Assembly (NCBI GenBank): GCA_964627245.1
Contig: CAZVGS010000004.1
Span: 22,806 to 86,805, forward strand
DNA length: 64,000 nt
Reading direction: 5' to 3'
DNA from: an uncultured Gammaproteobacteria bacterium
GTDB lineage: Bacteria; Patescibacteriota; Microgenomatia; Levybacterales; GWA1-39-11
This document shows, piece by piece, positions 3,140-64,000 of the stretch. Under the pieces are notes generated by a model that worked only from the letters and a program-made list of their open reading frames with translations, was not told the origin of the DNA and ran no database searches. Numbering within the stretch: position 1 is the stretch's first letter; every line of letters starts with the position of its first letter. A program made the position numbers and the translations under genes.

Positions 3140-3271
3140 CAAGACTCTAGCAATTAATGACTATAATTGCTAAAATATGGAACGGAAAAAGATTGTTTAA
3201 TGAATAAATTGTTTCACTGTTTCATTATTAAAACTTGGTATAGTAATTGAACAATCTAGCAATAATATACT

Positions 3272-4138
3272 ATGAATACTGATTATTACAAAACATTGGG
3301 TATCTCAAAGTCTGCAACGCAAGATGAAATAAAAAGAGCATATAGAAAACTTGCAGTAGAATATCATCCTGATAAAAACAAGACAAAAGAGGCTGAGGAA
3401 AAATTCAAGGAGATCAATCAAGCTTACGAAGTGTTGGGAAATCCTCAAAAAAGACAGCAGTACGATCAATTCGGTTCCCAAGCCTTTGAAAACGGAGGCC
3501 GTGGCGGTGCGGGCGGTCCTTTTGGCGGATTTGGGGGTCAGCAAGGACCTTTTTCTTACACTTATACCTCAAATGGTCAGGGGTATGATTTCGGGGGATT
3601 TTCGGACCCTTTCGATATATTTGAGCAGTTTTTTGGAGGAGCGTCTTCCCCATTTGGGAGAAGAAAACCAACATATTCTTTAAGAATTGACTTTATGGAT
3701 GCTGTTAAAGGTACGACCAAAACTGTTTCACTTGATGGAAAGAAAAAGGATATTAAAGTTCCGGCAGGAGTAAATGAGGGCTCAAGAATTCAATTCAATG
3801 ATTTTGACATAATAATATCGGTTTCCTCACACAATAAACTTAAGCGGGAGGGTTATGATATTATTTCTGAGCTTAAAATTCCAATGACAACGGCAGCCCT
3901 AGGAGGCATAGAGTCGGTTGAGACTGTATCAGGCAATGTGAAATTAAAAATTCCACAAGGAACACAGCCGGGTACTCTTATAAGAATAAAAGACAAAGGC
4001 GTTAAGAAAATTGGAGTTTCAGGACATGGAGACCACTATGTCAGAGTTCAGGTAGAGGTGCCTTCAAAACTTTCTTCAAAACAACGCGAAATACTTGAAG
4101 ATTTCTCTAAAGAATCAAATAAGAAGCGCTGGTTCTAA
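3272..4138 (+). CDS. DnaJ-class co-chaperone (J domain + G/F region, no Zn-finger; CbpA/type II-like)
   Basis: J-domain DYYKTLGISKSATQDEIKRAYRKLAVEYHPDKN with HPD motif. Gly/Phe-rich region. C-terminal substrate-binding domains without CxxCxGxG repeats. Confidence 0.85.
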   Translation: MNTDYYKTLGISKSATQDEIKRAYRKLAVEYHPDKNKTKEAEEKFKEINQAYEVLGNPQKRQQYDQFGSQAFENGGRGGAGGPFGGFGGQQGPFSYTYTSNGQGYDFGGFSDPFDIFEQFFGGASSPFGRRKPTYSLRIDFMDAVKGTTKTVSLDGKKKDIKVPAGVNEGSRIQFNDFDIIISVSSHNKLKREGYDIISELKIPMTTAALGGIESVETVSGNVKLKIPQGTQPGTLIRIKDKGVKKIGVSGHGDHYVRVQVEVPSKLSSKQREILEDFSKESNKKRWF

Positions 4139-4762: not shown

Positions 4763-5452
4763 TCACATTCGAAGAAGCATTATTCCAAGAATAGCAAAAA
4801 GAACAATAAAAATTCCCAACATAGTATAAAGTCTAACGTTTGGTTTTTTTGATTGTGTAGCACCTTTTTTATCTGGAAAATTTTGTGTTACTGTTTTAGT
4901 TCTTTCTACTGGAATCATATTAAATTGCTTTAGGTGATCGGTGCGCTTTAGAAGTTGTGATGCATTTTCGGTCGTCAAATTTCTTATTAAGCCTTGATCT
5001 TGTCCAAGCATCTGGTAAGGAATTACCCAGTCAATTGAGAAAAAGCACTTCTCGAATCCTAGTTTTAGTTCCCTGTATACATCATAGTTGGCTGCTATCA
5101 CTTTGACGTCTTTTTCAATTGTGTACTCTTTTGATAATGCGCTCTCGAATGGGACAGTATCCAAAAATTTATCAACCTCTTCCTTCAAATCTTCCCGGCT
5201 AAGATTCATAAAATCCTTTTCAAAAGTTATGTTGGGGGAGAGAAGCATTGTTATAGATGCAGGAGCTAATTGATATTGGTCTACAAAACTTTTTATCTGA
5301 TTTATCAGTGAAGCACCATTTATGACATCCATGTCTCTGACTGAAGTTGAGAGGAATGCAAGGCTTACGACAAGAGTTAGACCTGTTTCGTAAAAATAAA
5401 ATCCATTTTTATCCAGATACAAAAATCCTGGTTGTTTTTTTACAAAATCCAT
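4763..5452 (-). CDS. hypothetical tail-anchored membrane protein inside the pilus operon (possible pilus assembly accessory protein)
   Basis: C-terminal TM segment (LYTMLGIFIVLFAILGIMLL). Sits between pilin genes on the same strand. No recognisable motif. Confidence 0.45.
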   Translation of the reverse strand: MDFVKKQPGFLYLDKNGFYFYETGLTLVVSLAFLSTSVRDMDVINGASLINQIKSFVDQYQLAPASITMLLSPNITFEKDFMNLSREDLKEEVDKFLDTVPFESALSKEYTIEKDVKVIAANYDVYRELKLGFEKCFFSIDWVIPYQMLGQDQGLIRNLTTENASQLLKRTDHLKQFNMIPVERTKTVTQNFPDKKGATQSKKPNVRLYTMLGIFIVLFAILGIMLLRM

Positions 5453-5533
5453 ATTATGAAAATTTCTAAGTACTGTAATTTCTAATTAATCTAGGTTTAT
5501 AAATCAGGTCAATTAGGTTAATTAGTAATTTAT

Positions 5534-5905
5534 TCATATCTCCTTCCATGAAGTAGCAGTTAGAGTGTTATTACTCGTATCAACTATTACTTGTATTGTT
5601 CTTGTAAAATTATTGACGGTACCTTTTGATATAACCGTTTTTGGATTAGTTCCGTTAACAGTTATGACTGCTTCTCCATTCTCAATCGTAAGAGTCTCGC
5701 CACTATAATCCGGATCTCTTAGTAATTTAATCATAGCAGTTTCTGCGCCACTTTCCGCAATGTTTAATGAGTTTGAGCCTTGATAAACTTTATCTGTTCC
5801 TGTCGAACTGTTTATAACAAGAGCTATCGACGCAGTTGTAACAACGACCGCAATGACCATATATATAAGTAAAATTACCAGTGTTTGGCCTTTTTGTTTT
5901 CTCAT
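5534..5905 (-). CDS. minor pilin-like protein (degenerate prepilin N-terminus)
   Basis: N-terminus KGQTLVILLIYMVIAVVV resembles a prepilin leader plus hydrophobic helix but lacks Glu+5. 4-nt overlap with the upstream pilin gene. Confidence 0.5.
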   Translation of the reverse strand: MRKQKGQTLVILLIYMVIAVVVTTASIALVINSSTGTDKVYQGSNSLNIAESGAETAMIKLLRDPDYSGETLTIENGEAVITVNGTNPKTVISKGTVNNFTRTIQVIVDTSNNTLTATSWKEI

Positions 5906-6417
5906 CTTAAGCCTGCTGTTGTTTGAAAATTTTGTTCGTCGGCAATTCCTTCTTTTCTGATATTTCCGGAAATCGTAAAATTTATTCTGACGGTATCTTT
6001 TGCACTATCTGTTCCTACTTTCGTAAAAACCAAATCTGAGATAGATGATCCATAGCCGTTAAGATTGAACGTGCCACTTGGATTTGATGTCACTAAGTTC
6101 CCGCTGCTTGTTGAATATGTATGATTTTCGCCATTAATAACGAGTACCAAATTCGCTGAAGAACTGCCGAATAACGCAGGTTCAATTATTGAATCGGCTC
6201 TTCCGACATCATATATAAAGCGCGAATATATATATCTTCCATCATCGGCTACATTTGATGTATTTGTAGAACTTAGCTGATTTTCTATTATTGCAATAAA
6301 TATCTGCGTGAATATTACGATAAGAATTGTTAGAAGACCCATATATATAAGAAGTTCGACTAAAGTAAATCCCGATTGACTCTTAGCGGATGGATTGGAT
6401 TTATGTTCTTTCATCAT
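5902..6417 (-). CDS. minor (pseudo)pilin with prepilin-type N-terminal cleavage/methylation motif
   Basis: SGFTLVELLIYMGLLTILIVIF motif. ATGA overlap with the giant pilin-like gene. Confidence 0.8.
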   Translation of the reverse strand: MMKEHKSNPSAKSQSGFTLVELLIYMGLLTILIVIFTQIFIAIIENQLSSTNTSNVADDGRYIYSRFIYDVGRADSIIEPALFGSSSANLVLVINGENHTYSTSSGNLVTSNPSGTFNLNGYGSSISDLVFTKVGTDSAKDTVRINFTISGNIRKEGIADEQNFQTTAGLR

Positions 6418-30666: not shown

Positions 30667-31887
30667 ATGACAAATTTCAAAAAACAAATCGTTTCAGCAG
30701 CAGCAGCAGGAGCTATGCTTCTTAATGTAGCAGTTCCAGCGTTCGCTTCTACTGAAATCGTAATTTCAGGAAATGGTGCAGATTCTTCTAACTGGTCAAC
30801 AGTTAGCCAATCAAACACCAATTCCGTTACACAAAATAACTCAGCAAACGTTACCAATAATGTAGACGCAGATGCATCAACTGGTGGCAATGACGCTAAC
30901 TTCAATACTGGAGGAGACGTTAATGTTGACACTGGAGATGCGACAACTGACGTTAAGGTTGCCAATGCTCTTAATAGCAATTCTGCAGATGTAGATTGCT
31001 GTGGAGCAGGTAATACTGACGTTGAAATTTCCGGAAACGGAGCAGATTCTGTAAATGGAGTTTCCGTTGGATCTTCCAACACAACTTCTGTTTCTCAGAA
31101 CAATAAAGCAAACGTCAAAAACAATATTGATACGGATGCTAAGACTGGTTACAACGATGCAAATTCCAATACTGGAGGAGACGTTACTGTCAATACCGGA
31201 ATTGCAAAAGCTAGCGCTACTGTTGCTACAATAGCTAACGTTAACTCAGCAAAAGTTGGAGGAGGACTTGGTTTATCTAACCCTTCTGCAAAATTTGTAA
31301 TCTCAGGAAATGGAGCAAATTCAAATAACTCCATTCAAGCAGGACTCACAAATGTTACCGCCGTAGAGCAAGATAACAGTGCTCATGTTAAGAATAACGT
31401 TGATGCAGATGCATCAACTGGTGGTAATGACGCTAACTTTAACACCGGAGGAGAAGTAACTATCGACACCGGAGATGCGACAACTGATGTTGACGTTGCT
31501 AACGCCGTTAACTTCAACCACGCAGATGTTGATTGCGGGTGTCTTATGGATGTCCTTGCAAAAGTCGCCGGAAACGGAGCTGATACAAAAAACATCATTA
31601 CTTTAGGTCTTGCTAATGTGCAATCAATGGCACAGGACAACGGAGCTTGCCTATACAACGATGTAGATGGAGAAGCAAAGACCGGTGATAATGACGCGAA
31701 CTCCAACACTGGAGAAGCTGATACTGATCCAACTGTTAACACCGGAAACGCTACATCAAATACTGATGTAGAAAATGAAGGTAATGTTAATAATGTTGGT
31801 GGACTTTTCAGCATGCCTGAAATGCCTGATGTCGATTTCGACTTCAGTTTTGCATTTCTTTGGGCTTGGTTTGGAATGTCAGTTTAA
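30667..31887 (+). CDS. secreted tandem-repeat protein, paralogue 1 (four ~90-aa N/T/G/D-rich repeats with Cys pairs; hydrophobic C-terminus)
   Basis: SD AAAGGAGGTGA 8 nt upstream of the ATG at 30667. Signal peptide MTNFKKQIVSAAAAGAMLLNVAVPAFA. Repeats share ISGNGADS...NVTNNVDADASTGGNDANFNTGGDV..DTGDATTDV...DCC/DCGC. The ORF-track start at 30556 is an upstream extension. Confidence 0.75.
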   Translation: MTNFKKQIVSAAAAGAMLLNVAVPAFASTEIVISGNGADSSNWSTVSQSNTNSVTQNNSANVTNNVDADASTGGNDANFNTGGDVNVDTGDATTDVKVANALNSNSADVDCCGAGNTDVEISGNGADSVNGVSVGSSNTTSVSQNNKANVKNNIDTDAKTGYNDANSNTGGDVTVNTGIAKASATVATIANVNSAKVGGGLGLSNPSAKFVISGNGANSNNSIQAGLTNVTAVEQDNSAHVKNNVDADASTGGNDANFNTGGEVTIDTGDATTDVDVANAVNFNHADVDCGCLMDVLAKVAGNGADTKNIITLGLANVQSMAQDNGACLYNDVDGEAKTGDNDANSNTGEADTDPTVNTGNATSNTDVENEGNVNNVGGLFSMPEMPDVDFDFSFAFLWAWFGMSV

Positions 31888-32012
31888 TTTGGTTAATGTA
31901 GGGTGAATTGCTAGCACTTCGGCAGGACACCCTACAACCAAAATAGGAATAGATAGAAGATAAAAAATATAGAAAACAATTTAATAATAGGACAATTAAA
32001 AAATAAATAATT

Positions 32013-34229
32013 ATGAATATTGGACAACTCAAAAAATTAATAGCTTCATTTTTGATATTGGTACTATTAACTGGAAAATTGGTTTTAATCCCAGTTGCGG
32101 TATATGCGGAGGATGCGCCAACGCCTCCTGAAAATACAATGGTTGCGCCAACCGCGCCAACCGCGCCAACGCCTCCTGAAAATACAATGGTTGCGCCAAC
32201 CGCGCCAACCGCGCCAACGCCTCCTGAAAATACAATGGTTGCGCCAAACGCGCCAACCGCGCCGGAAGCACCAACTGGGCCAAACTCTTCCGAAGAACAG
32301 GCAATCCAATCAGCAGTAAATGAGCAGCCTCAAGAGGGAGGTAGTGGATCAGGAAATGTTGGAGATACAGCTATTAATACTGGAGATGGTAACAATAGCG
32401 GTTACATTAACAACACTGGAAACAACAATTTAGCAACCGGTTTTTGCCCAACATGCGCCGGAAGTGCAACTGTTGCAAATACAGGTAACGGAGCAGGATC
32501 AACAAATAATGGTTCAGCAACCACAACTACAAACAATAATCTTGGGCAGGGAAACAGCGCAGTTGTTGCAAACGACCTTAATCAAGCAACAGTAACAGGT
32601 GGAAATAACGCTTCATATAATGTAGGCAACTCATCTATAACAACCGGGGATGCAAATGTAACAGGAACAATCATTAACTCTATTAATACCAACGTTGATG
32701 GTGTAATGGTCAGTGAATTTAACATCGCAGATGATCATACTGGGGATATAATTTTAGACTTTGCTGCAAATTGTGTACAAGGCTGTAACGGACAAAGCAT
32801 TGCTAATAACACTGGAAATGGAGATGGATCAACAAATACTGCAGCAACCGACACAACGACTAATAACACTACAAATCAAACAAATGATGCTAATGTTTCA
32901 AATGGCATGACACTTGTTGCTAACTCCGGAGATAATGACTCAAGCTTTAATACAGGTGGCAACTCATCTATAACAACCGGGGATGCTAATGTGTCAGCAA
33001 ATGCTGTTACTCTTGCAAATAACAACTTTGCCGGAGACGTAATATACGGAGTAGTAAATATATTTGGAGATTTAATTGGAGACATAATACTTACTCAAGA
33101 GATGATGGATACTATCTGCGGAGGAACATGCACAGGATCAACAACTGCTATCAACTCTGATAATGGTGCAAATTCCACAAATACTGCTAACGCAACGAAT
33201 ACTACAAACAATAACACTTTCCAATCAAATGATGCGGATATCAGTAACCTTTTGACAGTTGATGCAACAACCGGAGGTAATAACACAAGCTATAACACAG
33301 GTGGAAACTCAAGCATGACGACTGGTGATGCAAATGTGGATGTAAATGTACTTAATATTGCCAATATGAACCTTGCAGGCGGCACATACTGGTTAGTACT
33401 TGTGAATGAGGCAGGAAACTGGATCGGGAAGATAATGGGTGGGCAAGAAGGTTCAAATGTCGCAGGATCTTCTCTAATGGAATTTCTTATCGACCCAATA
33501 ACCGGTGCAGTAACTGCTATGACAAGCGGAAACGGCAACAATTCAACCAATACTTCAACAGCAAACAACACTACCAATAACACAATTAACCAAACAAATA
33601 ACGCAGTTATCAACAACAACTTGAATCTCACAGCAAATACAGGTGGAAATGATGCAAATTACAATACGGGTGGTAACTCAAACATCGTAACAGGGGATGC
33701 TAACATAGTTGCAAATATAGTTAATTTTGTTAACAACAATATAGTAGGTGACGGAAAATTGGTTGTCACGGTTATCAATGTATTCGGAAGCTGGTTTGGG
33801 GACTTTATTGGACCGGGACAGACGAAGACTGCTTCGACTGCACATGAGTCAAATAACCAACAGCAAGTTGCCGTAAATACTAATAACTCTAATAGCAATC
33901 CAAACAATTCTTTCTCAACTGTTGCAGGAGCAGCAGGGTCAGCACAAGTAGAGAGTCAGGTCAGCGGTACGGTTGGGGCTGCAAAAAGCAAAGCTTTTGC
34001 ATTTGGTAATGTTCAAGGATCAAATACATCTAATAAGACCAATTCTGAAGCTACTGTTGCAAAAAGCGTAGGGCAAGACGGTTCTGCGGCAGTAGCTGAT
34101 AAAAAACTGACTATAAATCTAGCATGGTTATTACTTGCACTTCCTTTAACAGGGTTTGCACTTCTGATTAAAAAATCATTTGTACCTGTCCAAAGACTCG
34201 CGATTCGGGGAATAAATATCTTCTTATGA
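32013..34229 (+). CDS. secreted tandem-repeat protein, paralogue 2 (738 aa; N-terminal Pro-rich 16-aa x3 repeats then 6+ N/T/G-rich repeats; C-terminal LPLTG-containing hydrophobic tail)
   Basis: Signal peptide. APTPPENTMVAPTAPT x3. Repeated skeleton NTGNG.GSTNT...NQ.N.A.V.N...A.TGGN...NTGGNSSITTGDANV. Cys pairs GFCPTCAG, CVQGCNG, CGGTCTG. C-terminus ...LAWLLLALPLTGFALLIKKS. Confidence 0.75.
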   Translation: MNIGQLKKLIASFLILVLLTGKLVLIPVAVYAEDAPTPPENTMVAPTAPTAPTPPENTMVAPTAPTAPTPPENTMVAPNAPTAPEAPTGPNSSEEQAIQSAVNEQPQEGGSGSGNVGDTAINTGDGNNSGYINNTGNNNLATGFCPTCAGSATVANTGNGAGSTNNGSATTTTNNNLGQGNSAVVANDLNQATVTGGNNASYNVGNSSITTGDANVTGTIINSINTNVDGVMVSEFNIADDHTGDIILDFAANCVQGCNGQSIANNTGNGDGSTNTAATDTTTNNTTNQTNDANVSNGMTLVANSGDNDSSFNTGGNSSITTGDANVSANAVTLANNNFAGDVIYGVVNIFGDLIGDIILTQEMMDTICGGTCTGSTTAINSDNGANSTNTANATNTTNNNTFQSNDADISNLLTVDATTGGNNTSYNTGGNSSMTTGDANVDVNVLNIANMNLAGGTYWLVLVNEAGNWIGKIMGGQEGSNVAGSSLMEFLIDPITGAVTAMTSGNGNNSTNTSTANNTTNNTINQTNNAVINNNLNLTANTGGNDANYNTGGNSNIVTGDANIVANIVNFVNNNIVGDGKLVVTVINVFGSWFGDFIGPGQTKTASTAHESNNQQQVAVNTNNSNSNPNNSFSTVAGAAGSAQVESQVSGTVGAAKSKAFAFGNVQGSNTSNKTNSEATVAKSVGQDGSAAVADKKLTINLAWLLLALPLTGFALLIKKSFVPVQRLAIRGINIFL
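32115..32270 (+). repeat. three tandem copies of a 48-nt coding repeat (encodes APTPPENTMVAPTAPT) inside paralogue 2
   Basis: Unit GCGCCAACGCCTCCTGAAAATACAATGGTTGCGCCAACCGCGCCAACC repeats at 32115, 32163 and 32211. The third copy is slightly diverged. Confidence 0.85.
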
Positions 34230-35341
34230 TGAAAAAGGCTGCACTTTTTGTGGCCTGCCTAATCCTAAATTTAGCATTTGTTTCAAAGGCGCAAGCAGAA
34301 CAGATAGTTATAGAAGTAACCAACAACGGGGGCAGTTCTTCTAATGAAGTTAATACAGTTCAGCAATCAACAACTCAAGTTAACCAAAGCAATGAGGAAA
34401 ATATAGAAAATAACGTTGATAATAACGCAAATACAGGTAATAACGACGCCTCTTCGAATATGGGTGGGAACGCAAATATCAATACCGGAGACATTAATTT
34501 AACAACAAATGTTAGTAATGAGAATATTAACTCAAATAGCGTTACTATTGACACCTGCTGCAATCAAGGGAGTCAGATAAGGGTGAGTGGAAATGGGGAA
34601 AATTCAACTAATGTTATTTCTGCTAATAATTACAACACAGCATCATCATTCCAAAAAAATTCGACAAATATCTCAAATAACATAAATATTTATGCTAATA
34701 CTGGATACAATAAAGCTTCGTATAACGGTGGAGATACATCTATTGTAACGGGAAATATAAAGGCTAATACGGCTGTCATCAACAAAAATATTAATAATAG
34801 TTTTGCATCAATCGATAGTTTTGTGGGTAGCGCAATTATCAAAATATCCGGGAATGGAGCAGGTTCTGAGAATGTTGTCTATCTTGGTCAAAGTAACTCG
34901 GCAAATTCTGAAGTAGTAAATATTGCAAACATCATAAATAACATTGATCAAATTCTAAATACTGGAGGAAATGAAGCACTAAAAAATATAGGCGACGTTG
35001 CAGTTATTACAGGAGATATTGAAAGCAATATAACTGTCGAAAATGAAAATATCAACAGCAGTATTGCTGATATAGATTGTGCCTGTGATGACCCGGAGGA
35101 TCCACCTACGCCTCCAACTCCGCCGGTTTTGCCAACAAATCCATCGATAACACCTGATGTATCTTACGTTCAACCATCTTCAGGGAATTCTGATGGGGGA
35201 TCCTCAGCCGGCAGTACGCTTCCTGCCACTGGAACCACAATTCCATACACTTTGATTGCAACACTTATTCTATTTTTTCTTCTCCTTTCAGGACTGTATC
35301 TGCGCTTCCATTTAGCAAATGCACCACCTGCACGAGTTTAG
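34226..35341 (+). CDS. secreted tandem-repeat protein, paralogue 3, with C-terminal LPATG sortase sorting signal
   Basis: Signal peptide MMKKAALFVACLILNLAFVSKAQA. N/T/G-rich repeats carry the TGNNDASSNMGGNANINTGDINL pattern and CC / CAC Cys pairs. C-terminus is PTPPTPP linker, LPATG, hydrophobic TLIATLILFFLLLSGLYL, then RFH. ATGA overlap with paralogue 2. Confidence 0.8.
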   Translation: MMKKAALFVACLILNLAFVSKAQAEQIVIEVTNNGGSSSNEVNTVQQSTTQVNQSNEENIENNVDNNANTGNNDASSNMGGNANINTGDINLTTNVSNENINSNSVTIDTCCNQGSQIRVSGNGENSTNVISANNYNTASSFQKNSTNISNNINIYANTGYNKASYNGGDTSIVTGNIKANTAVINKNINNSFASIDSFVGSAIIKISGNGAGSENVVYLGQSNSANSEVVNIANIINNIDQILNTGGNEALKNIGDVAVITGDIESNITVENENINSSIADIDCACDDPEDPPTPPTPPVLPTNPSITPDVSYVQPSSGNSDGGSSAGSTLPATGTTIPYTLIATLILFFLLLSGLYLRFHLANAPPARV

Positions 35342-41658: not shown

Positions 41659-44049
41659 ATGAAAAAAGTTTCAAAATCTTTTGAATTGAGAGGAAAGAAT
41701 ATTTCTTTCGAGACAGGAACGCTTGCGTCCTTGTCTACATCCAGTGTTTTGGCACGGATGGGAGATACTGTAGTTCTTGCAACTGTTACCATGGGCAGGA
41801 ATGATACTACATTGGACTACTTCCCTCTTTCAGTTGAGTATGTGGAGCATCTGTATGCCGGCGGAAAAATAAAAGGATCCCGTTGGGTTAAGCGTGAAGG
41901 AAGACCGTCCGATGACTCAATTCTAACCGGAAGACTTATCGACCGCTCAATACGCCCTCTATTTCCCAAAGAACTTAAAAAAGACATTCAAGTGATAGTT
42001 AACGTTTTATCTTCAGACGGGGTGAATGATGCGGATATTCTGTCAATTAATGCAGTAAGCGCAGCCCTTGCCGCTTCAAAAATTCCATGGAACGGACCTG
42101 TTGGAGCTTCAAGAATTGGTCTTAACCGCGAAACACAAGAATTGGCTGTAAATCCTGAAATGGCAACGGAGATAGACTTGGATTTTGTTTTGACAGCATC
42201 TGCTAATGGAAATACCGTTATGGTTGAGGCAGGAGCAAACCAGGTTGGAGAAGACATTGCCCTGCAAGCAGTGAAAATGGCAAAAGAGGCAAATTCGGAG
42301 ATGATTGAATTTATTAACGCTTTTGCAAAAGAAGTAGGAGAGAAAAAAGATGAAGTTGTAAAAGACGAGGAAAAATCCAAATACGTTGCTCTGGTAGATA
42401 AATCTTACAAGAAAAACATAGTAGATGTTTTGGAAGGTGAATTGGGAGAAAATGTGTCAGGTGATCTTCAAAAAATTGCCGATCTAATTGCAGAAGAAGA
42501 AAGCAAAAAGGCAAAACAAGGAGAAACAGTCGACAAGAAAAAGATATTTGAAGCAGTTGACTATGTATTCAAAAGAATAATCCGCGAGAATATTGTTGAC
42601 AAAGAAAAAAGATTTGACGGGCGAAAAATTGATGAGATAAGACCTCTTTCTTCTCAGGTTAGTTTTATTCCAAGAGTTCATGGATCGGCACTTTTCCAAC
42701 GCGGACAAACACAAGTTTTATCCATTGCAACTCTTGCGTCTAGTTCATTCGGACAGCTCATTGAGACGCTTGAAGGCGAGGAAACAAAGCGTTACATGCA
42801 TCACTACACTTTTCCTCCTTTCTCAGTAGGTGAGACGGGAAGAATAGGCAGTCCTTCAAGACGCGAAATCGGACACGGAGCGCTAGCTGAAAGGGCTATT
42901 GAAGCAGTACTTCCTACAGCCGAGGAATTCCCTTACGCAATAAGAGTAGTGAGTGAGGTTTTGTCTTCAAACGGCTCAACTTCAATGGCTTCAACCTGCG
43001 GATCAACTTTGGCACTTATGGATGCCGGAGTTCCGATAAAAGCACCTGTTGCAGGAATTGCAATCGGGCTCATGACTTTGGACAAAAAGTACAAGATTTT
43101 GACAGACATTATTGGTCTTGAAGACTTTGCAGGAGATATGGACTTTAAGGTTGCTGGAACAGAAAAAGGCATTACGGCCATTCAATTAGACGTTAAGGTT
43201 GATGCTTTGACTGATGAGATGATTGCTGAAGTTTTTGACCGCGCTCGCAAGGCAAGAATGGAAATTCTAAAAGTCATGCTAAAAGCACTTCCTGAGTCAA
43301 GAGCCGAAGTAAGCAGTTTTGCTCCAAAGATAAAGATGATAAAGATTGATCCTGAAAAAATAGGCGGAGTTATTGGATCAGGCGGAAAAGTTATTAAAAA
43401 TATTATTGCTATGACAGGTGCTCAGGTTGATGTTGAGGACGACGGATCTGTAAGTATATCGGCAGTTGATGATGAAGCTGTTAAGAAAGCTGTTGAATGG
43501 GTTGAGGGATTGACTCATGATGTTGAGCCCGGTGAAGTTTATGACGGAACGGTTAAGAGAATGATGAATTTTGGAGCATTTGTTGAGATATTACCAGGAA
43601 AAGAAGGACTTGTTCATGTATCCGAGATGTCAACTGACTATGTCCAGTCACCTGAGGATGTTGTTGAGATAGGACAAAAAGTAAAAGTAAGGGTTAAGGA
43701 AATTGATGATATGGGAAGAATTAATTTATCTATGAAATTTGGAGAGGATGCAGACAAACCATCTAAAAGACCGGAAGGGTCTGAGGGCGGAAATGGAGAT
43801 AGAGGAGGACGCGGAGGAGACAGAGGTCCAAGAGGCGGCGGCGGAAGACCCGGCGGAGGGTTTTCGCGGGGAGGACCCCCAAGAAGCGGTGGAGGCGGAT
43901 TTTCCAGAGGCGGAGGGCCTAGGCGTGATTTTGGTGGAGGACAGAGACCTTCAAGCGTTGGAAGAAGTTTTGGCGGAGGAAGAAGAAGCAGCGGAATTGA
44001 TAAAAAACCAACCTACGAAGGCGGACGGCGCGACGACTGGAGAGGTTAG
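41659..44049 (+). CDS. pnp: polynucleotide phosphorylase (PNPase) with ~90-aa C-terminal Arg/Gly-rich (RGG/FSRGG) tail
   Basis: Two RNase PH domains, KH and S1 domains. After the S1 domain comes GNGDRGGRGGDRGPRGGGGRPGGGFSRGGPPRSGGGGFSRGGGPRRDFGGG... Confidence 0.9.
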   Translation: MKKVSKSFELRGKNISFETGTLASLSTSSVLARMGDTVVLATVTMGRNDTTLDYFPLSVEYVEHLYAGGKIKGSRWVKREGRPSDDSILTGRLIDRSIRPLFPKELKKDIQVIVNVLSSDGVNDADILSINAVSAALAASKIPWNGPVGASRIGLNRETQELAVNPEMATEIDLDFVLTASANGNTVMVEAGANQVGEDIALQAVKMAKEANSEMIEFINAFAKEVGEKKDEVVKDEEKSKYVALVDKSYKKNIVDVLEGELGENVSGDLQKIADLIAEEESKKAKQGETVDKKKIFEAVDYVFKRIIRENIVDKEKRFDGRKIDEIRPLSSQVSFIPRVHGSALFQRGQTQVLSIATLASSSFGQLIETLEGEETKRYMHHYTFPPFSVGETGRIGSPSRREIGHGALAERAIEAVLPTAEEFPYAIRVVSEVLSSNGSTSMASTCGSTLALMDAGVPIKAPVAGIAIGLMTLDKKYKILTDIIGLEDFAGDMDFKVAGTEKGITAIQLDVKVDALTDEMIAEVFDRARKARMEILKVMLKALPESRAEVSSFAPKIKMIKIDPEKIGGVIGSGGKVIKNIIAMTGAQVDVEDDGSVSISAVDDEAVKKAVEWVEGLTHDVEPGEVYDGTVKRMMNFGAFVEILPGKEGLVHVSEMSTDYVQSPEDVVEIGQKVKVRVKEIDDMGRINLSMKFGEDADKPSKRPEGSEGGNGDRGGRGGDRGPRGGGGRPGGGFSRGGPPRSGGGGFSRGGGPRRDFGGGQRPSSVGRSFGGGRRSSGIDKKPTYEGGRRDDWRG

Positions 44050-44976: not shown

Positions 44977-46113
44977 ATGGATTCTGCCCAGAAAACAGTA
45001 GATGGTAGTCAGGAGTTAGGAGCTGGAAACAATAACTCTCAAAACCCGGATTCTAATTCCCAAATTTCAAAACTTGAGACTTTGATAGTCAACGCAAAGT
45101 TACCTGAGGATTTAAATCAATCTGCAAAAGCGATGGTAGCTCGCCTCAAGATTGTAAAAGATCAACCCTCTTTTTATACAGAATATGACACTATTTCAAG
45201 ATATGTCACTTGGATAACAGCGCTTCCCTGGGGAAAAAAGTCCGAAGATATTTTAGATCTTTCACATGCCAAGCAGGTTTTGGATCACAATCACTACGGC
45301 CTTGAGGTTGTAAAAGAGCAGATTTTAGAATTCTTATCAATTATGATTTTGACAAAAGCCCGCGCCGGTCAGCAGGGAAGTGATATCATTGCAAGGGCTC
45401 CGATACTGTCTCTTGTGGGTCTTGCGGGGGTCGGTAAAACAACGATTGCATATTCAATTGCTGAGGCTTTGGGCAGGAAAATTGAAAGAATCCCATTTGG
45501 TGGAATGGGTAGCGCAAGCCAACTAAGAGGCAAATCCAGACTTTATTCAGATAGCGAACCCGGTTATGTGATAAAAGCCCTAAGACGAGCAGGTACTTCA
45601 AATCCGGTTATATTACTCGATGAAATAGATAGAGTTAGTGAGGAAGCAAGAGCAGATATTATGGGTGTGTTGGTAGAACTTCTGGATCCTTTGCAGAATA
45701 AAGCATTCACAGACCACTTCATAGACTATCCGGTAGATCTTTCACAAGTACTTTTTATTGCTACTTCAAATAATACCAAAGACATTTCAACCGCTGTTGT
45801 TGATAGGCTGGAGATAATCCAAATGCCATCATATACCGATGATGAAAAAACGGTTATTGGTAAGACTTATGTACTGCCAAAGGTAATGAAAGAGTCAGGT
45901 TTGACGCCCAACGAATTTGCTATAGCTGATGATGTTTGGCCTGAAGCAATAGTTAGGCCTTTGGGATACGACCCGGGAATAAGAGGTTTGCAGCGCGTTT
46001 TGCAGGGGATTGTTAGAAAAACCGTATACTACATGATGATCGGTAAAATTCCCCAAGGACAGAGATTTGTTGTGACCAATGAGAATGTAAAGAATTTTGT
46101 TTCGGCGTGGTAG
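44977..46113 (+). CDS. Lon-like AAA+ ATPase module without N-terminal LAN domain and without S16 peptidase domain
   Basis: Colinear with Lon: LVGLAGVGKTTIAYSIAEALGRK..RIPFGGMG..QLRGKSRLYSDSEPGYVIKALRRAGTSNPVILLDEIDRV...LDPLQNKAFTDHFIDYPVDLSQVLFIATSNN...VDRLEIIQMPSYTDDEK. The ORF ends after the alpha-helical lid. Confidence 0.75.
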   Translation: MDSAQKTVDGSQELGAGNNNSQNPDSNSQISKLETLIVNAKLPEDLNQSAKAMVARLKIVKDQPSFYTEYDTISRYVTWITALPWGKKSEDILDLSHAKQVLDHNHYGLEVVKEQILEFLSIMILTKARAGQQGSDIIARAPILSLVGLAGVGKTTIAYSIAEALGRKIERIPFGGMGSASQLRGKSRLYSDSEPGYVIKALRRAGTSNPVILLDEIDRVSEEARADIMGVLVELLDPLQNKAFTDHFIDYPVDLSQVLFIATSNNTKDISTAVVDRLEIIQMPSYTDDEKTVIGKTYVLPKVMKESGLTPNEFAIADDVWPEAIVRPLGYDPGIRGLQRVLQGIVRKTVYYMMIGKIPQGQRFVVTNENVKNFVSAW

Positions 46114-46240
46114 GTGGCGGGTCCTGTCTCAGCCCGTCCCATTTGCGCGCCGTCTCGCCCGCTCTGCTTACAAAAAAATATTGTTCGTTTGCTCGAGATG
46201 TTCAATGGGACCCTGGACTGAGCCACCCGCATTGGTTTTG
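46114..46240 (+). ncRNA. GC-rich structured element (candidate small RNA, rnj leader element or strong terminator) between Lon-like gene and rnj
   Basis: About 65% GC in a ~37% GC genome. 5' GGTGGCGGGTCC pairs with 3' GGGACCC...GCCACC. The interior is AT-rich. No convincing ORF. Confidence 0.35.
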
Positions 46241-46280
46241 AGATTTGAGTTGTGAGTTTTATGCAATATAATTAAGTCAA

Positions 46281-47960
46281 ATGGAAAGTAATAATAATGC
46301 AAGTCCGCTTAACTCCGTAACGGTTCTGCCGTTAGGAGGTATAGGGTCGGTTACCAAGAATATGTATTTATATATTTTTGGCAACGAAATACTAATCGTC
46401 GATTGTGGAATGGGTTTTCCCGATGCCAATACACCCGGTGTAGACTTTCTAATTCCTGACATAACGCATCTTAAGAAATTGGTTACGCAAGGCAAAAAAA
46501 TTGTGGGTCTTTTACTTACTCACGGGCACGAAGATCATATAGGAGGCGTTCCTTTCGTTCTTGACCAGCTCCCAAGTTTTCCTATATATGCAACCCCCCT
46601 GACAGCGGCATTTACAAATGAAAAATTGAAAGATTTTGGGCTTAATCAGCGGGTTGTTGAGGTTAAATTCAAGAAGGATTTTAGGCTTGGTGCATTTATG
46701 GTCCGATTTTTGCATATCACGCATAGTGTCATGGATACTTCAAATATTTTTATAAAAACCCCTGTTGGTAACTTTTATCACGGCAGTGACTATAAATTTG
46801 ACCTAACACCTCCCGATGATAAGCCGACAGATATGCATGGGATAGCAGAAACAGCACGAGAGGGAGTAATGTGCATGATGTCTGACTGCCTGGGAGCAGA
46901 ACGCGAAGGGCATAGTAAATCCGAGCGAAAAATTACCGATAAATTTGAAGAAGAGATGAGAAGGTCTAAGGGAAAGGTTTTTATAAGTACCTATTCTTCA
47001 AATATTTCACGCATGAACCAAGCCATCGAGGCCGCAATAAAATTTAATAGAAAAGTGTGCTTTATGGGAAGATCTTTTGCAAAGGCGAGGGATATCGGTA
47101 GGCAATTGGGGTATATGAAACTGCCTCAAAATATGGAAATAAAGTCCCAGCAGGCAGGATCAATGGATCCGTCAAAAGTAATGATCTTAATTCCCGGGAG
47201 TCAGGCACAAGAAGAGTCTGCTCTTGTCAGAGTTGCAAATGATAATGACCGGGATCTTAGAATTGAGAAAAACGACACTGTTATTTTTTCAGCGGATCCA
47301 ATACCCGGGAATGAAGTAAATATTTATAGTCTGATTGATACTATTTCAAAAAAAGGCGCCCGTGTTATACATTCCGACATGTCAGATGAATTTCATGTGT
47401 CAGGTCATGGATCTCAAAATGACATAAAACTTCTTGCAACTTTGACAAGACCAAGATACGCATTTCCAATAGGCGGAAATTACCGTCACATGCTGGCGTT
47501 CAAAGGATTGATGAGGGACCTTGGAATGCGTGAGCAGGATATAGTTCTTCCTGAATACGGACAGGAAGTCGTTTTTTTCAAAGGCTCTTTCCGCTATGGA
47601 GCAAAAATTCCTTTGGCAACTGTTTATGTAGATGAGATAACAGGCGAGGAGATGGAAAAATTTGTGCTTTTGGACCGCCAAAAGATAGTAAAAGAAGGAA
47701 TAATGATAATTATGGTTGAGGTAGAGGCTGATAGTGGAAAGATTGTTGAGAAGCCTGATGTTATTGTCAGAGGCGTTGCTTTTCCCGAGAAGGATGGGTT
47801 TGTTGAAAAGTTGGGTAGTGAGTTGAGCCGAAGCATGTCTCAAAAGAGTGGTAGGGCCAATTCTGCTCTTTACAGAAAGACTATCCAAAGAACGGCAGAA
47901 AATCTTTTGTACAAAATGAAGCGCGAACCCCTAGTTATCCCTGTTGTTATTGAAGTGTAG
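46281..47960 (+). CDS. rnj: ribonuclease J (metallo-beta-lactamase / beta-CASP RNase)
   Basis: LLTHGHEDHIGGVPF motif. Beta-CASP motifs. C-terminal domain. 559 aa. Confidence 0.9.
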   Translation: MESNNNASPLNSVTVLPLGGIGSVTKNMYLYIFGNEILIVDCGMGFPDANTPGVDFLIPDITHLKKLVTQGKKIVGLLLTHGHEDHIGGVPFVLDQLPSFPIYATPLTAAFTNEKLKDFGLNQRVVEVKFKKDFRLGAFMVRFLHITHSVMDTSNIFIKTPVGNFYHGSDYKFDLTPPDDKPTDMHGIAETAREGVMCMMSDCLGAEREGHSKSERKITDKFEEEMRRSKGKVFISTYSSNISRMNQAIEAAIKFNRKVCFMGRSFAKARDIGRQLGYMKLPQNMEIKSQQAGSMDPSKVMILIPGSQAQEESALVRVANDNDRDLRIEKNDTVIFSADPIPGNEVNIYSLIDTISKKGARVIHSDMSDEFHVSGHGSQNDIKLLATLTRPRYAFPIGGNYRHMLAFKGLMRDLGMREQDIVLPEYGQEVVFFKGSFRYGAKIPLATVYVDEITGEEMEKFVLLDRQKIVKEGIMIIMVEVEADSGKIVEKPDVIVRGVAFPEKDGFVEKLGSELSRSMSQKSGRANSALYRKTIQRTAENLLYKMKREPLVIPVVIEV

Positions 47961-60329: not shown

Positions 60330-62219
60330 ATGAAAGCTTCAGAAATACTTAATAAATATATTGCTTTCTTTGAAAAAAGAGGACACACAAGGATTGAGAA
60401 TTCTTCACTCGTCCCCTTAAATGATCCGACAACTTTATTTACCTCTTCTGGTATGCAGCCGTTAGTACCTTTTCTTTTGGGTGAAACCCATCCTCAAGGA
60501 GTAAGACTTGTTAATGCCCAAAATTGTTTTCGCGCGCAAGACATTGATGAAATAGGAGACAACAGACATACGACTTTTTTCAGGATGCTAGGCAACTGGT
60601 CGTTGGGTGATTATTTTAAAAAAGAACAAATTCCATGGTTTTTCGAATTTTTGACTAATAAAGTAGAAGGGATTGGTCTTGACCCCAACAGGCTATACGT
60701 GACAGTATTTGCAGGTTCTAAATCCATTGAAAAAGACACAGAAAGCTATGAAATTTGGAAAGGTTTGTTTGAGAAAAAGGGAGTAAATATGGATGGAAGA
60801 ATTTCAGAATATGGTGTTGAAAAAAATTGGTGGTCTAGGGCTGGTATTCCTGAAAATATGCCTGTTGGTGAACCTGGAGGACCTGACTCTGAGGTTTTTT
60901 ATGATTTTGGATCGGACGAGCGAAGCGAAGGAGATCGCCCGCGCGGCGAAGCCGAAGACCGGCGTGGCGGCTTGGGGATTCACGAACTCTCCCCATATGC
61001 ATCTGAAAAGTGTCACGTAAATTGTGATTGCGGAAGATACCTAGAAATAGGCAATTCAGTATTCATGCAGTACATAAAAACAGAAAATGGGTTTGAAAAT
61101 TTACCAAAACAAAATGTTGATTTTGGAGGAGGTCTCGAGCGTCTTGTTGCCGCATCCGAGAACAAACAGGACGTTTTTGAAACATCTTTGTTTGCACCTA
61201 TTATTCAAACAATCATAAATACTACTGCAAAGGATTATCAAAAAAATTCTTCCGAAATGAGGATAATTTTGGATCACATGACAGCTTCATGTTTTATGAT
61301 TTCAAATAGCATTAAGCCTTCCAATAAAGAACAGGGTTATGTCTTAAGACGTCTAATCCGACGGGGACTGGATAATTTTTATCTTCTGAACGGCGATACG
61401 ATAGTGTCTGTGGTTGAGAAGATTGTTGAGCAGTACTCGGACACAGATATTGTTTTAAGAGAAAAGTTTGAAGAAATTAAAAATACAATTCTTGAGGAAG
61501 AAGCATCTTATCAAAAGGCTTTGTCCGGCGGGAAAAAACTGATAGAGAAAGAGGTCGCAAAGTTGAAGGATGAAGTAAAAGTGGGAGACGAACTGAAAGG
61601 ATTAACACTAATTTCTGCAGACACTGCTTTTAAGGCAATTACATCCTACGGACTTGGACCAACTCAGCTTGAAAGTTTGGGATACACTTTTGATAGAAAA
61701 GAATTAGCTGAAAAAATAAAAGAACATCAAGATCTTTCGAGAAAAGGAGCAAGTCAAAAATTTGCCGGAGGCCTTGCGGATCATTCAGAATTGACTGTCA
61801 AAGGTCATACCGCAACTCACCTAATGCACCAAGCAATAAGGGATATATTAGGAGACAAGGTTCATCAATCGGGGAGCAATATAACCTCAGAAAGGGTCAG
61901 GTTTGATTTTAACTGTGATGAAAAATTGTCTGAGGAGCAAATAAGACAAGTTGAGGAAACAGTAAGAAAAAAGATTGAGGAGGATTTGCCTGTTCATTTT
62001 GAGATAATGACCCTTTCAAAAGCGAAGTCTTTGGGAGCAATTGGATTATTTGACGAAAAATATACTGAGAATGTAAAGATATATTTTATAGGGGATTATT
62101 CAAAAGAGTTTTGTGGAGGCCCACATGTTGAGCACACCAACCAGATAAAATCTTTTGATATACTAAAGGAAGAAAGCGCATCACGTGGTGTGAGGCGTAT
62201 CTATGCTAAAGTAACATGA
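60330..62219 (+). CDS. alaS: alanine--tRNA ligase, short form (catalytic + tRNA-recognition + editing domains, no C-Ala domain) with a GC-rich Arg/Gly/Glu-rich in-frame insertion
   Basis: N-terminal motifs HTRIENSSLVP..DPTTLFTSSGMQP and FRMLGNWSLGDYFK. CDCGRYLEIGNSVFMQY region. Editing-domain HxxxH...CGGPHV. Insertion SDERSEGDRPRGEAEDRRGGLG encoded by 60905-60990. Confidence 0.85.
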   Translation: MKASEILNKYIAFFEKRGHTRIENSSLVPLNDPTTLFTSSGMQPLVPFLLGETHPQGVRLVNAQNCFRAQDIDEIGDNRHTTFFRMLGNWSLGDYFKKEQIPWFFEFLTNKVEGIGLDPNRLYVTVFAGSKSIEKDTESYEIWKGLFEKKGVNMDGRISEYGVEKNWWSRAGIPENMPVGEPGGPDSEVFYDFGSDERSEGDRPRGEAEDRRGGLGIHELSPYASEKCHVNCDCGRYLEIGNSVFMQYIKTENGFENLPKQNVDFGGGLERLVAASENKQDVFETSLFAPIIQTIINTTAKDYQKNSSEMRIILDHMTASCFMISNSIKPSNKEQGYVLRRLIRRGLDNFYLLNGDTIVSVVEKIVEQYSDTDIVLREKFEEIKNTILEEEASYQKALSGGKKLIEKEVAKLKDEVKVGDELKGLTLISADTAFKAITSYGLGPTQLESLGYTFDRKELAEKIKEHQDLSRKGASQKFAGGLADHSELTVKGHTATHLMHQAIRDILGDKVHQSGSNITSERVRFDFNCDEKLSEEQIRQVEETVRKKIEEDLPVHFEIMTLSKAKSLGAIGLFDEKYTENVKIYFIGDYSKEFCGGPHVEHTNQIKSFDILKEESASRGVRRIYAKVT

Positions 62220-62291
62220 CAGTTTGTAGTTGATGGTTGGTAGATTTAACTCTTCTAGCTATTAACTGCAAACTACTAACTACAAACTAAT

Positions 62292-64000
62292 ATGCGACTG
62301 CCTGCCATACCATTTTTAACCAGATCTGTACAAACAGAATTTTTCTTAGCTTTAATATTTGAATCTGATAAGGTAAGCTCGATTCTTTTTAAGGAGCAGG
62401 AGAAAAAACTTCTTATTCTTGGCTCGGTCGAGGCACCCATTGACCTTGAAAGCGCATCTGCCGAAGAATTAATAGTTGCCTGTGACAAAGTAATATCAAA
62501 AATTGAAGATAATTTACCCGAGAATGCAAATTTGGAAAAAACAATATTTGCGACTCCATATTCTTGGGTCGAGGAGGGAAAAATAAAGCCGGATAGACTG
62601 GCAATACTTAAAAAATTAAGCGAAGAACTTGCTTTAACGCCGATGGGATTTATTATATCGGTTGAGGCAATAATTGCATTTCATCAAAAAAAAGAAGGAG
62701 CTCCTGTAAATGGAATTTTTGTAGAAATTTCAGAAAAATATTTAAGTGCATATATCGTTAGATCCGATAACATTATTGATGTTCAGACGGGTTCGATTGA
62801 CGGATCTGTTGAGTCAACTGTTGAAAGATTGCTTGCGCAAGTTACAAAACTTGACGTTTTGCCTTCAAAGATTGTTCTTCTTTACAATAAAGAAGCTGAA
62901 GAAATTTCACAAAGATTTTTATCGCACCACTGGACCAAAGATTTGCCTTTCATGCATTTGCCTCAAGTTTCAATTCTCGAGAAAGGATTTGAGAGTGAGG
63001 CAATTATTAGCGGGGTTGCTTCACAGTTGAATGCTGATGTTGGCGGTGATATTTCAACCGAAACCGAAGCAATGCAGTATGAAGAGTCAGGTCTTGTAGA
63101 AGTATCATCGGATGATTTTGGATTTGCGGCTGATGAGGACATCGCGTTTAAGAAGGAAGAGTCGGAGAGTAAAGTAGATGAAAACATTGCCATGGCTGAC
63201 GATTTTGAATTTAGTAAAGAAGAAGTACCGGTCAAGCCAATCTTAAGACACCACGATGATAACCCTTCGGCAAGTCCGGACGAATCGGAATTTGAGGAGG
63301 ATATTCCTGAAAAATTCGGTGGTTCTACAGGTTTTTTTGCAGGTAAAATTGGATCTTACTTTTCGGCTTTTTTAACTCCTAAATCAATTTTTGGAATTGT
63401 AAATAACTTTAAGAATTTCCGAAAATTCATAATTCCCTTCTGCGCGCTTATTGTTGTAGTTGTTCTCTTGATTTCATACTACTCATTTATAGTGCAGGCA
63501 AAGGTAATCGTTTTTACCGATCAAAAGGCATTTTCCGAAAATGCAATGAATATAACTCTTACATCCTCTGGTGAGTCCTCATTTGAGGATAAAGTGTTGA
63601 AAATACAAACAATTGAGCAGAGCGCTTCGGGAGAGCAATCTCAGGAAACAACAGGTGTCAAAGACACGGGCGAAAAGGCAACAGGCAGTCTAACTATTTT
63701 TAACAAGACCGAAAAACCAAAACAGCTTGATAGAGGAACGACGGTAGTATCATCCAACAATCTTGAATTTACATTGGATGATTCGGTAAATATAGCATCA
63801 ACAAGCTCTTTTTCAACTTCATTTTCAAGTGCTCAAGCAAAAGTTACCGCTTCACGATTCGGGAAGGAATACAACCTACCGTCCCAAACCAATTTTACTG
63901 TTGAAGGAGAATCCTCATCCGATATATTCGGAAAAAATGACCAAGCATTTTCGGGAGGATCGAAAGAACAGATACAGGTAGTTTCAAAGAAAGATCTTCA
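62292..64000 (+). CDS. hypothetical large membrane-anchored protein (3'-truncated at window edge; not in supplied ORF track)
   Basis: I translated 62292 to 64000 codon by codon in this frame and found no stop. One TM helix (IIPFCALIVVVVLLISYYSFIV) around 63430-63500. Acidic linker before it. Confidence 0.6.
   Translation, partial: MRLPAIPFLTRSVQTEFFLALIFESDKVSSILFKEQEKKLLILGSVEAPIDLESASAEELIVACDKVISKIEDNLPENANLEKTIFATPYSWVEEGKIKPDRLAILKKLSEELALTPMGFIISVEAIIAFHQKKEGAPVNGIFVEISEKYLSAYIVRSDNIIDVQTGSIDGSVESTVERLLAQVTKLDVLPSKIVLLYNKEAEEISQRFLSHHWTKDLPFMHLPQVSILEKGFESEAIISGVASQLNADVGGDISTETEAMQYEESGLVEVSSDDFGFAADEDIAFKKEESESKVDENIAMADDFEFSKEEVPVKPILRHHDDNPSASPDESEFEEDIPEKFGGSTGFFAGKIGSYFSAFLTPKSIFGIVNNFKNFRKFIIPFCALIVVVVLLISYYSFIVQAKVIVFTDQKAFSENAMNITLTSSGESSFEDKVLKIQTIEQSASGEQSQETTGVKDTGEKATGSLTIFNKTEKPKQLDRGTTVVSSNNLEFTLDDSVNIASTSSFSTSFSSAQAKVTASRFGKEYNLPSQTNFTVEGESSSDIFGKNDQAFSGGSKEQIQVVSKKDL

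Follow-up and report, generated by a model that had tools for sequence, protein, structure and literature searches.

In the stretch of contig CAZVGS010000004.1 analyzed here, 64,000 nucleotides in length and referred to as the window, the spacer between the gene for a Lon-like ATPase and rnj, the gene for RNase J, contains a GC-rich hairpin segment at positions 46114-46240 that is probably a solitary copy of a dispersed, GC-rich and imperfectly palindromic DNA repeat, similar to the repetitive extragenic palindromes (REPs) and probably mobile. We favour this reading because the segment belongs to a family that combines strong covariation with a flat spectrum of mismatches, is dispersed in multiple copies, is sporadic and in part decaying in its presence, and carries a tag tetranucleotide of the REP type. 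An initial annotation of this DNA had offered several candidate interpretations, and among these a tiny GC-rich mobile insertion fits best, as evidenced by a multi-copy family that occurs in unrelated contexts and in several phyla, but only sporadically in close relatives. The GC island in the spacer should thus be labelled as a repeat element rather than as the gene for a small RNA (sRNA) or a regulator of RNase J. The spacer is 167 nt long, and the element and the features next to it are arranged as follows:

44977-46113, plus strand: gene for a Lon-like AAA+ ATPase without a peptidase domain, 378 amino acids (Pfam AAA and Lon_lid).
46117-46230, no strand assigned: core of the palindromic element with clamp, asymmetric loop and hairpin, 114 nt, located by covariance model R1 and with termini that fit the family pattern exactly.
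46245-46272, plus strand: promoter-like site of rnj, consisting of TTGAGT, a 16-nt spacer and TATAAT, downstream of the element and ending 8 nt before the ATG.
46281-47960, plus strand: rnj, encoding RNase J (Pfam RNase_J_b_CASP, RNase_J_C and Lactamase_B).

The TAG stop codon of the Lon-like gene occupies positions 46111-46113, and the GC-rich element begins 3 nt further on. For 46114-46240 we measured a GC content of 55.9%, lower than the approximately 65% reported initially, compared to 38.6% for the whole window; the AT-rich interior described at the same time was confirmed, with 68% GC in the arms (46114-46170 and 46211-46232) and 35% in the middle (46171-46210). Three 60-nt windows reach 73% GC, and the spacer element is the only non-coding one among them, the other two lying within open reading frames (ORFs). 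The complementary ends noted before, GGTGGC/GCCACC and GGGTCC/GGACCC, do exist, but the pairing register that is conserved in the family is a different one, formed by the helices P1 to P3 described below. There is no convincing ORF in the element, as had been stated, and ORFs of 44-67 amino acids are not preserved in the copy found at the related locus L008. In contrast, the Lon peptidase domain that was believed to be missing is not a loss at all, as a homologue search identified AAA-only Lon-like proteins such as this one, of about 370 and in general roughly 360-390 amino acids, as a conserved family.

Membership in a family was established by scanning metagenome contigs with the pattern GCGGGTCCTGTC-N(64-94)-AGCCACCCG, composed of the termini common to the window and L008. 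The scan returned 72 loci, with a rough chance expectation of about 7, possibly up to a few tens. After deduplication, 13 of the pattern matches were GC-rich, coding-like sequences that folded like their shuffles (mean z about 0) and therefore resemble chance hits, while 50 distinct sequences folded at a mean z of -4.3 on the pattern strand and -4.6 on the opposite one. Note that the pattern demanded the 21-nt core, so that the list of hits overstates its true conservation; a covariance model made from 24 of the metagenomic sequences (R1) did retrieve the variants GCGGGGCCTGTC, AGGGGT...ACCCCT, CCTGCC and GTGCCACCC. In the window, R1 has a single match at 46109-46238 with 34.6 bits and an E-value of 2e-5. 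The L008 copy scores 32.9 bits, and neither the window nor the 456 kb of Levybacteria loci yielded a further match. A search for 30-mers with three mismatches and a repeat finder likewise detected no second copy in the window. A 16-mer scan of viral contigs gave 11 matches that all lack the 3' motif and are thus due to chance, and a blastn search of a plasmid collection with two family members was without a match.

The members share a common architecture, a 6-bp clamp GCGGGT/ACCCGC followed by an asymmetric loop with CCTGTC on its 5' side and GCC on its 3' side, a covarying helix P2 and a free interior. In the window copy, helices were taken from minimum free energy (MFE) structures, and the parts are the following:

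46117-46122, plus strand: 5' strand of the clamp P1, GCGGGT, pairing with 46225-46230.
46123-46128, plus strand: 5' side of the asymmetric internal loop, CCTGTC, unchanged between the window, L008 and every pattern match.
46128-46134, plus strand: 5' strand of P2, CTCAGCC, pairing with 46215-46222 (GGACTGAG, with one bulge).
46136-46143, plus strand: 5' strand of P3, GTCCCATT, pairing with 46204-46211 (AATGGGAC).
46144-46203, no strand assigned: variable interior, largely AT-rich, as seen in the sequence and the GC profile.
46221-46230, plus strand: conserved 3' motif AGCCACCCGC, known from the family termini.

The pair columns of P1 hardly vary across the family, although the second copy of locus L123 shows a covarying change to AGGGGT/ACCCCT, and the 5' side of the internal loop varies among model-found copies to forms that include GCCTGTC and CCTGCC. 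P2, in the window a helix of 7 pairs with 57% GC that is closed by the clamp, covaries strongly, with 23-30 double-sided changes per pair in the family alignment. The counterpart of P3 in L008 is CCCTCATC/GATGAGGG. Within the interior, the window carries TGCTCGAG at 46190-46197, and its motif TGCTCG recurs in many, although not all, members. The hairpin is highly variable in length, from 40 to approximately 235 nt, with an interior that ranges from 3 nt in the minimal 40-nt copy of L126 to about 200 nt in L149. The clamp is often lengthened by flanking bases that differ between copies; where the flanks are homopolymeric they are T-runs on the 5' side and A-runs on the 3' side that merely extend it, and in most members A-runs are found 3' of the clamp.

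As evidenced by RNAalifold, the alignment of 24 members has 26 consensus pairs, 16 of them with compensatory changes. When 68 distinct rows were aligned to the model, 90.4% of cells were paired versus 69% in shuffles, double-sided changes numbered 310 versus 105, and the covariation score was 0.35 versus 0.096, dropping to 0.07 or less when the pairing partners were slid. A helix selected as RNA would tolerate G-U pairs on the transcribed strand, whereas a DNA palindrome gives a strand-symmetric pattern of Watson-Crick pairs only. The mismatches in paired columns comprise 33 G-T, 28 A-C and 113 across eight other types (about 14-16 per type), with G-U not commoner than any other type on either strand, and this flat, strand-symmetric spectrum points to a palindrome at the level of DNA and not to a selected RNA. 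The very strong covariation makes this family easy to mistake for a structured RNA, and the flat spectrum of mismatches is a warning for scans for RNA structure.

For the window copy taken alone, a fold beyond chance level is seen mainly on the minus strand. A 146-nt slice folds at -48.4 kcal/mol with a z of -2.73 on the minus strand and 0.09 on the plus strand in dinucleotide shuffles, and a 124-nt slice gave corresponding values of -3.60 and -1.85. The stem-loop of about 114 nt has a folding energy of -43 to -48 kcal/mol, and among all 120-nt windows taken in 10-nt steps the MFE of the element is the second lowest, with a GC-corrected z of -3.4 on the minus strand. These values, with z from -2.7 to -3.6, would suit a gene encoding a small structured RNA that belongs to a multi-copy sRNA family, with clamp and asymmetric loop as a protein-binding site on the RNA, and so would the strength of the covariation, the conserved internal loop and the independence of the element from its neighbour genes; in AT-rich genomes, an island of high GC content often turns out to be an RNA gene. 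Nevertheless, we consider an sRNA, one of the initial candidates, to be unlikely. Besides the lack of a G-U excess, fold energies and z-scores across the family do not distinguish the strands, both averaging about -4.3 to -4.6, no promoter or terminator was found at a fixed distance in the flanks of the copies, the length varies from 40 to about 235 nt with an interior that is freely replaced, and the element is sporadic in close relatives, with one orthologous copy in decay.

Database searches agree with this. Rfam 15, at the gathering threshold and at E ≤ 10, returned no family for the window, for L008, for locus L003 described below or for 16 + 7 canonical family loci; on the elements themselves there were only weak chance matches to snoRNA, miRNA and leader models (E about 0.1-6), and the matches above gathering, one FMN riboswitch and three tRNAs, lie elsewhere in the family loci. 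An ARAGORN scan of the window for tRNA and tmRNA yielded 0 genes. Signal recognition particle RNA, 6S RNA, Y RNA, RNase P, K-turns, tetraloop receptors and integron attC sites were considered and dropped, as their defining motifs or Rfam matches were lacking. In the literature on structured RNAs or repeats of the Candidate Phyla Radiation (CPR) or Omnitrophota we found nothing specific, and the family, which is absent from Rfam, appears to be undescribed.

Copy counts for the family refer to loci of 2-21 kb, to the 64-kb window and to the 456 kb of Levybacteria loci. Second copies occur within the same locus of 2-15 kb in eight cases (L123, L086/L090, L126, L078, L100, L067, L108 and L102), and L149 from Omnitrophota has three copies in 21 kb. 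In L070, L104, L129 and L133 the cores are 94-98% identical, while the flanks are without similarity in DNA or protein. Copies are found in both orientations, mostly 0-40 nt from the 3' end of a gene, and no neighbour gene is common across the family; from reading the sequences rather than from a family scan, the neighbouring proteins that were inspected look like ordinary housekeeping enzymes, for example those of argH, lysA, aroE, pgi, dusB and fumC. The hosts belong to at least three phyla. The low-GC 'type A' loci were assigned to Candidatus Omnitrophota by their ArgH homologues, the GC-rich member L069 lies on a contig of Acidobacteriota/Thermoanaerobaculia according to its fumarase homologues, and the third host group are the Levybacteria (Patescibacteria/CPR), to which the window itself was assigned by the names of the closest homologues of its Lon-like protein.

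Individual copies differ in their state of preservation. L102 and L125 have a copy between argH and lysA. Its orthologue in the corresponding spacer of L149 is mutated and decaying, with GATAGGATTCGC in place of GACAGGACCCGC, and L150 and L151 have none. In L102 (6470-6475) and L125 the first G of the element supplies the last base of the argH stop codon TAG, and the C-terminus of ArgH is 1-3 residues longer in these two loci than in L149 and L151. Partial extra termini were observed beside full copies, AGCCACCCGC about 20 nt after the copy in L067 and GCGGGTCCTGCC about 25 nt before the one in L124; these may be footprints or nested events.

For a comparison within Levybacteria we collected 47 loci via the Lon-like protein and 16 more via exact-protein look-ups. 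The order of the Lon-like gene and rnj is preserved at every relative locus whose contig extends far enough, with spacers that are usually 0-120 nt long, AT-rich and unrelated in sequence. Among about 60 Levybacteria loci that keep this order, the element is present in one, L008, which was also the only hit in a blastn search of the element against 49 related loci. The closest relatives of the window, L050 (90% protein identity and the same FGase neighbour), L064, L065 and L001, are all devoid of it. The L008 copy sits at the same junction and shares the 5' GGTKGCGGGTCCTGTC and the 3' AGCCACCCG with the window; its interior differs in sequence and length, yet is self-complementary again. In a neighbour-joining tree built from both flanking proteins, the window groups with L050/L051 and L008 with L004/L005. 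None of these four carries the element, and L004, despite sharing 88-93% identity with L008 in the coding DNA on either side, has a spacer of only 30 nt. L008 is thus not the nearest relative of the window and the neighbours of both lack the element, and therefore this site saw either two separate gains or one old insertion followed by many losses.

The second of these options, an old insertion that was inherited vertically in Levybacteria and kept for a local function as a DNA or RNA binding site while most lineages lost it, has in its favour that the only two Levybacteria copies occupy exactly the same site, with none elsewhere in the relatives or the window, and that they have an identical core and interiors that cannot be aligned but are still paired. 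It is likewise unlikely in our view, since the two carriers are not sisters, many independent losses would be needed, and the spacer turns over completely even between genomes that are about 90% identical. Moreover, the junction also harbours other insertions. A second structured element of about 190 nt is found there in L003 (3803-3990, the same in L012) and in L002 (5086-5290), which are not sister lineages, and in L063 a whole gene for a protein of 125 amino acids of the 23S_rRNA_IVP family (PF05635) is inserted between the Lon-like gene and rnj (1277-1654). The presence of a different structured element in the non-sister loci L002 and L003/L012 and of a gene in L063 suggests that the junction behaves as an insertion hot spot, at which streamlined CPR genomes have taken up structured insertions again and again.

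With respect to these other insertions, the L002 and L003/L012 versions of the element of about 190 nt are approximately 70% identical and form hairpins with compensatory changes; the reverse strand has GTGAGGAAAGTCCGG, which resembles CR-I of RNase P, but Rfam gave no match. In L002, the spacer of 1255 nt also contains an ORF of 294 amino acids (5435-6319) downstream of this structured element. The 23S_rRNA_IVP family includes accessory proteins of diversity-generating retroelements.

The location upstream of rnj and on the same strand had raised the possibility of a cis-regulatory 5' leader of RNase J. This is very improbable and we rejected a leader or riboswitch, because the element is not conserved at this position, being found upstream of rnj in just one of the approximately 60 relatives, because family members adjoin unrelated genes, and because the promoter-like TATAAT box of the window (46267-46272) lies between the element and the ATG of rnj. 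A TATAAT 7-9 nt before the rnj start, without a Shine-Dalgarno sequence, is seen in the window and in L001, L004, L006, L007, L009, L011, L013, L050, L064 and L065, and this suggests that the rnj mRNA of this Levybacteria clade is probably leaderless, as a conserved trait. With the box at this distance in the close clade, there is no room for a leader.

A strong terminator, also proposed initially, has a somewhat better basis. The element abuts the stop codon of the Lon-like gene, rnj appears to have a promoter of its own, ACCCG in the L008 copy is followed directly by TTTTTT, and of the relatives' Lon-rnj spacers with a length of 45 nt or more, about half have a far better fold than their shuffles although their sequences are unrelated to each other, all of which would be consistent with a locally evolved intrinsic terminator or 3' stabilizing stem-loop of the Lon-like gene. 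In the window, however, ACCCGC is followed by ATTGGTTTTG without a clean U-tract, a terminator scan was silent at this site, and most members of the family have A-runs rather than T-runs 3' of the clamp. Local evolution also offers no explanation for an identical 21-nt core in three phyla, with unrelated surroundings and in either orientation relative to the upstream gene. We therefore regard this origin as quite unlikely, and terminator properties may be a side effect of the element.

Among the spacers of the relatives, those of L020, L036, L046, L050, L005, L024-L026 and L030 contain long AT-rich hairpins made of short repeated words such as GATAC, AAGCT and CCAAT, and similar ones are found in Omnitrophota in L149 (14412-14558 and 18503-18622). 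These hairpins have z-scores from -3.5 to -6.7 and mutually unrelated sequences in Levybacteria and Omnitrophota alike.

The assignment to a REP-like repeat rests on a detailed comparison with REPs and REPINs, which are mobilized by Y1 HUH transposases termed RAYT (REP-associated tyrosine transposases) or TnpA-REP. As in that system, the copies are extragenic, imperfect palindromes with a GC-rich basal stem, located in short spacers, often after genes and in either orientation, and the family is multi-copy and dispersed, with hairpin sequences that vary while their pairing is kept. Copy numbers are 2-3 per 2-21 kb in Omnitrophota and other loci and one in the 64-kb window. The definition of a REP requires the tetranucleotide GTAG or GTGG at a distance of 0-2 nt on the 5' side of the foot of a GC-rich hairpin (PMC6006769). 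The minus strand of the 3' motif of the element reads GCGG-GTGG-C-T, placing a GTGG tag (46226 to 46223) 1 nt 5' of the foot of P2, and the tag is present in nearly all members. The whole minus strand of the window copy takes the form GCGG-GTGG-C-(P2 hairpin)-GACAGG-ACCCGC, and the ends of the element in minus-strand form are GCGGGTGGC-(hairpin)-GACAGGACCCGC. Table S1 of the cited study contains REPs of the type GGTGG-C-hairpin next to the Y1 genes of Planctomyces limnophilus and Desulfatibacillum (PMC6006769).

We propose that the copies would spread as folded single-stranded DNA, mobilized in trans by an enzyme that reads the basal module, and the likeliest candidate for this putative enzyme is a Y1 HUH transposase of the RAYT or IS200 type. 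Hairpins at the ends of IS200/IS605 elements are read as single-stranded DNA in an arrangement of guide and cleavage site (PMC6006769). In these subterminal hairpins and in palindrome-associated transposable elements (PATEs), bases 5' of the foot can pair a few nucleotides 3' of the hairpin (PMC6006769), and on the minus strand of the window copy GGGT just 5' of the foot may similarly pair with ACCC 6 nt 3' of the hairpin, in what would correspond to such a layout. The element differs from both in that it has one hairpin per unit and not a left and a right end, and there is no adjacent tnpA or tnpB and no conserved flanking target tetranucleotide. In the present genome the copy is probably a passenger in an insertion-tolerant spacer with nothing to be selected for. 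If co-transcribed with the Lon-like mRNA it would form a very stable 3' stem-loop that could impede 3' exonucleases or weakly terminate transcription, presumably a by-product rather than the reason for the existence of the element.

Two further classes of mobile DNA were compared. Like miniature inverted-repeat transposable elements (MITEs), the element is small, non-coding and foldable and inserted sporadically in spacers, but its terminal inverted repeat is the 6-bp clamp alone, its interior covaries instead of being a conserved copy of a parent insertion sequence, and there are no target-site duplications or flanking direct repeats, many flanks being inverted repeats that extend P1; a MITE was rejected on these grounds. 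In integron attC sites, a conserved stem on the outside is followed by an unpaired spacer, then by an inner stem and a terminal structure of very variable length, and the sites are read as folded single strands. The element has the same succession of stem, spacer, inner stem and variable end, but its termini GCGGGTCCTGTC ... AGCCACCCGC contain no RYYYAAC or GTTRRRY boxes, and we found no cassette arrays, only housekeeping-like neighbours in either orientation, so that attC was rejected as well.

Several observations weigh against a REP-like repeat. In the window and the collected loci, no Y1-like ORF was detected by tblastn with an IS200 TnpA sequence or by a regular expression for the HUH/Y motif. 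An Omnitrophota genome (the one encoding P0123) does have a Y1_Tnp (PF01797) gene for 196 amino acids at 1504-2094, with truA and rplM as its neighbours across spacers of 133 and 87 nt, and its product is a candidate RAYT-like enzyme in a phylum where the repeat family abounds. REPs are described as species-specific in sequence (PMC6006769), whereas the core of the element is common to at least three phyla, a conservation that is overstated as the search imposed that core. A canonical REP tag is single-stranded, while in the element its first two bases are buried in the conserved clamp GCGGGT/ACCCGC, and a conserved asymmetric loop of 6/3 nt and hairpins much longer than those of REPs, up to about 235 nt, are further differences. 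Neither a target-site duplication nor a clear insertion boundary could be defined in the copies compared, with spacers that are too diverged between filled and empty sites (L008 versus L004, and L102/L125/L149 versus L150/L151). The immediate flanks of many copies pair with each other and extend P1, which a cut-and-paste model does not predict. Finally, the element is rare in Levybacteria, with one copy in the 64-kb window and one in the 456 kb of relatives, and their common site could mean an old, vertically kept and selected element.

A more specific proposal, which we put forward tentatively, is that the family is an undescribed class of REP-like mobile hairpins in which clamp and asymmetric loop (GCGGGT-CCTGTC ... 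GCC-ACCCGC), a module common to the distant phyla Omnitrophota, Acidobacteriota and CPR Levybacteria, are the recognition and cleavage site of one conserved enzyme acting on single-stranded DNA. If this were true, it would imply horizontal spread of the element system, also into the ultra-small genomes of the CPR, and preferential insertion at certain spacers, the Lon-like/rnj junction among them. REP-type elements are considered lineage-specific and are best known in Proteobacteria and Cyanobacteria. A REP-like family whose basal module is conserved in sequence between Omnitrophota, Acidobacteriota and a CPR lineage, and which is outside Rfam, would widen this picture, and it provides a defined DNA substrate for finding the enzyme that mobilizes it.

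Elsewhere in the window, the GC islands at 43766-43964, 60898-61010 and 2743-3562 were considered as related elements and discarded, since they lie inside long ORFs, read as low-complexity protein segments and are unrelated. In the PNPase ORF, 43740-44049 encodes an Arg/Gly-rich (RGG-rich) C-terminal tail of about 100 amino acids past the S1 domain with 73% GC, and 60898-61010, also with 73% GC, looks like a charged low-complexity insertion within an ORF of 629 amino acids (60330-62219). An AT-rich inverted repeat with 34-nt arms at 62210-62299 overlaps the end of this ORF, which stops at 62219; a 120-nt window that starts at 62161 has a folding energy of -42.2 kcal/mol at 38% GC, and the repeat may be a terminator-like hairpin. 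The region 30700-34600 contains several diverged families of direct repeats with periods of about 264-370 nt and a 48-nt tandem repeat at 32115-32263, and is probably a large gene for a repetitive protein.

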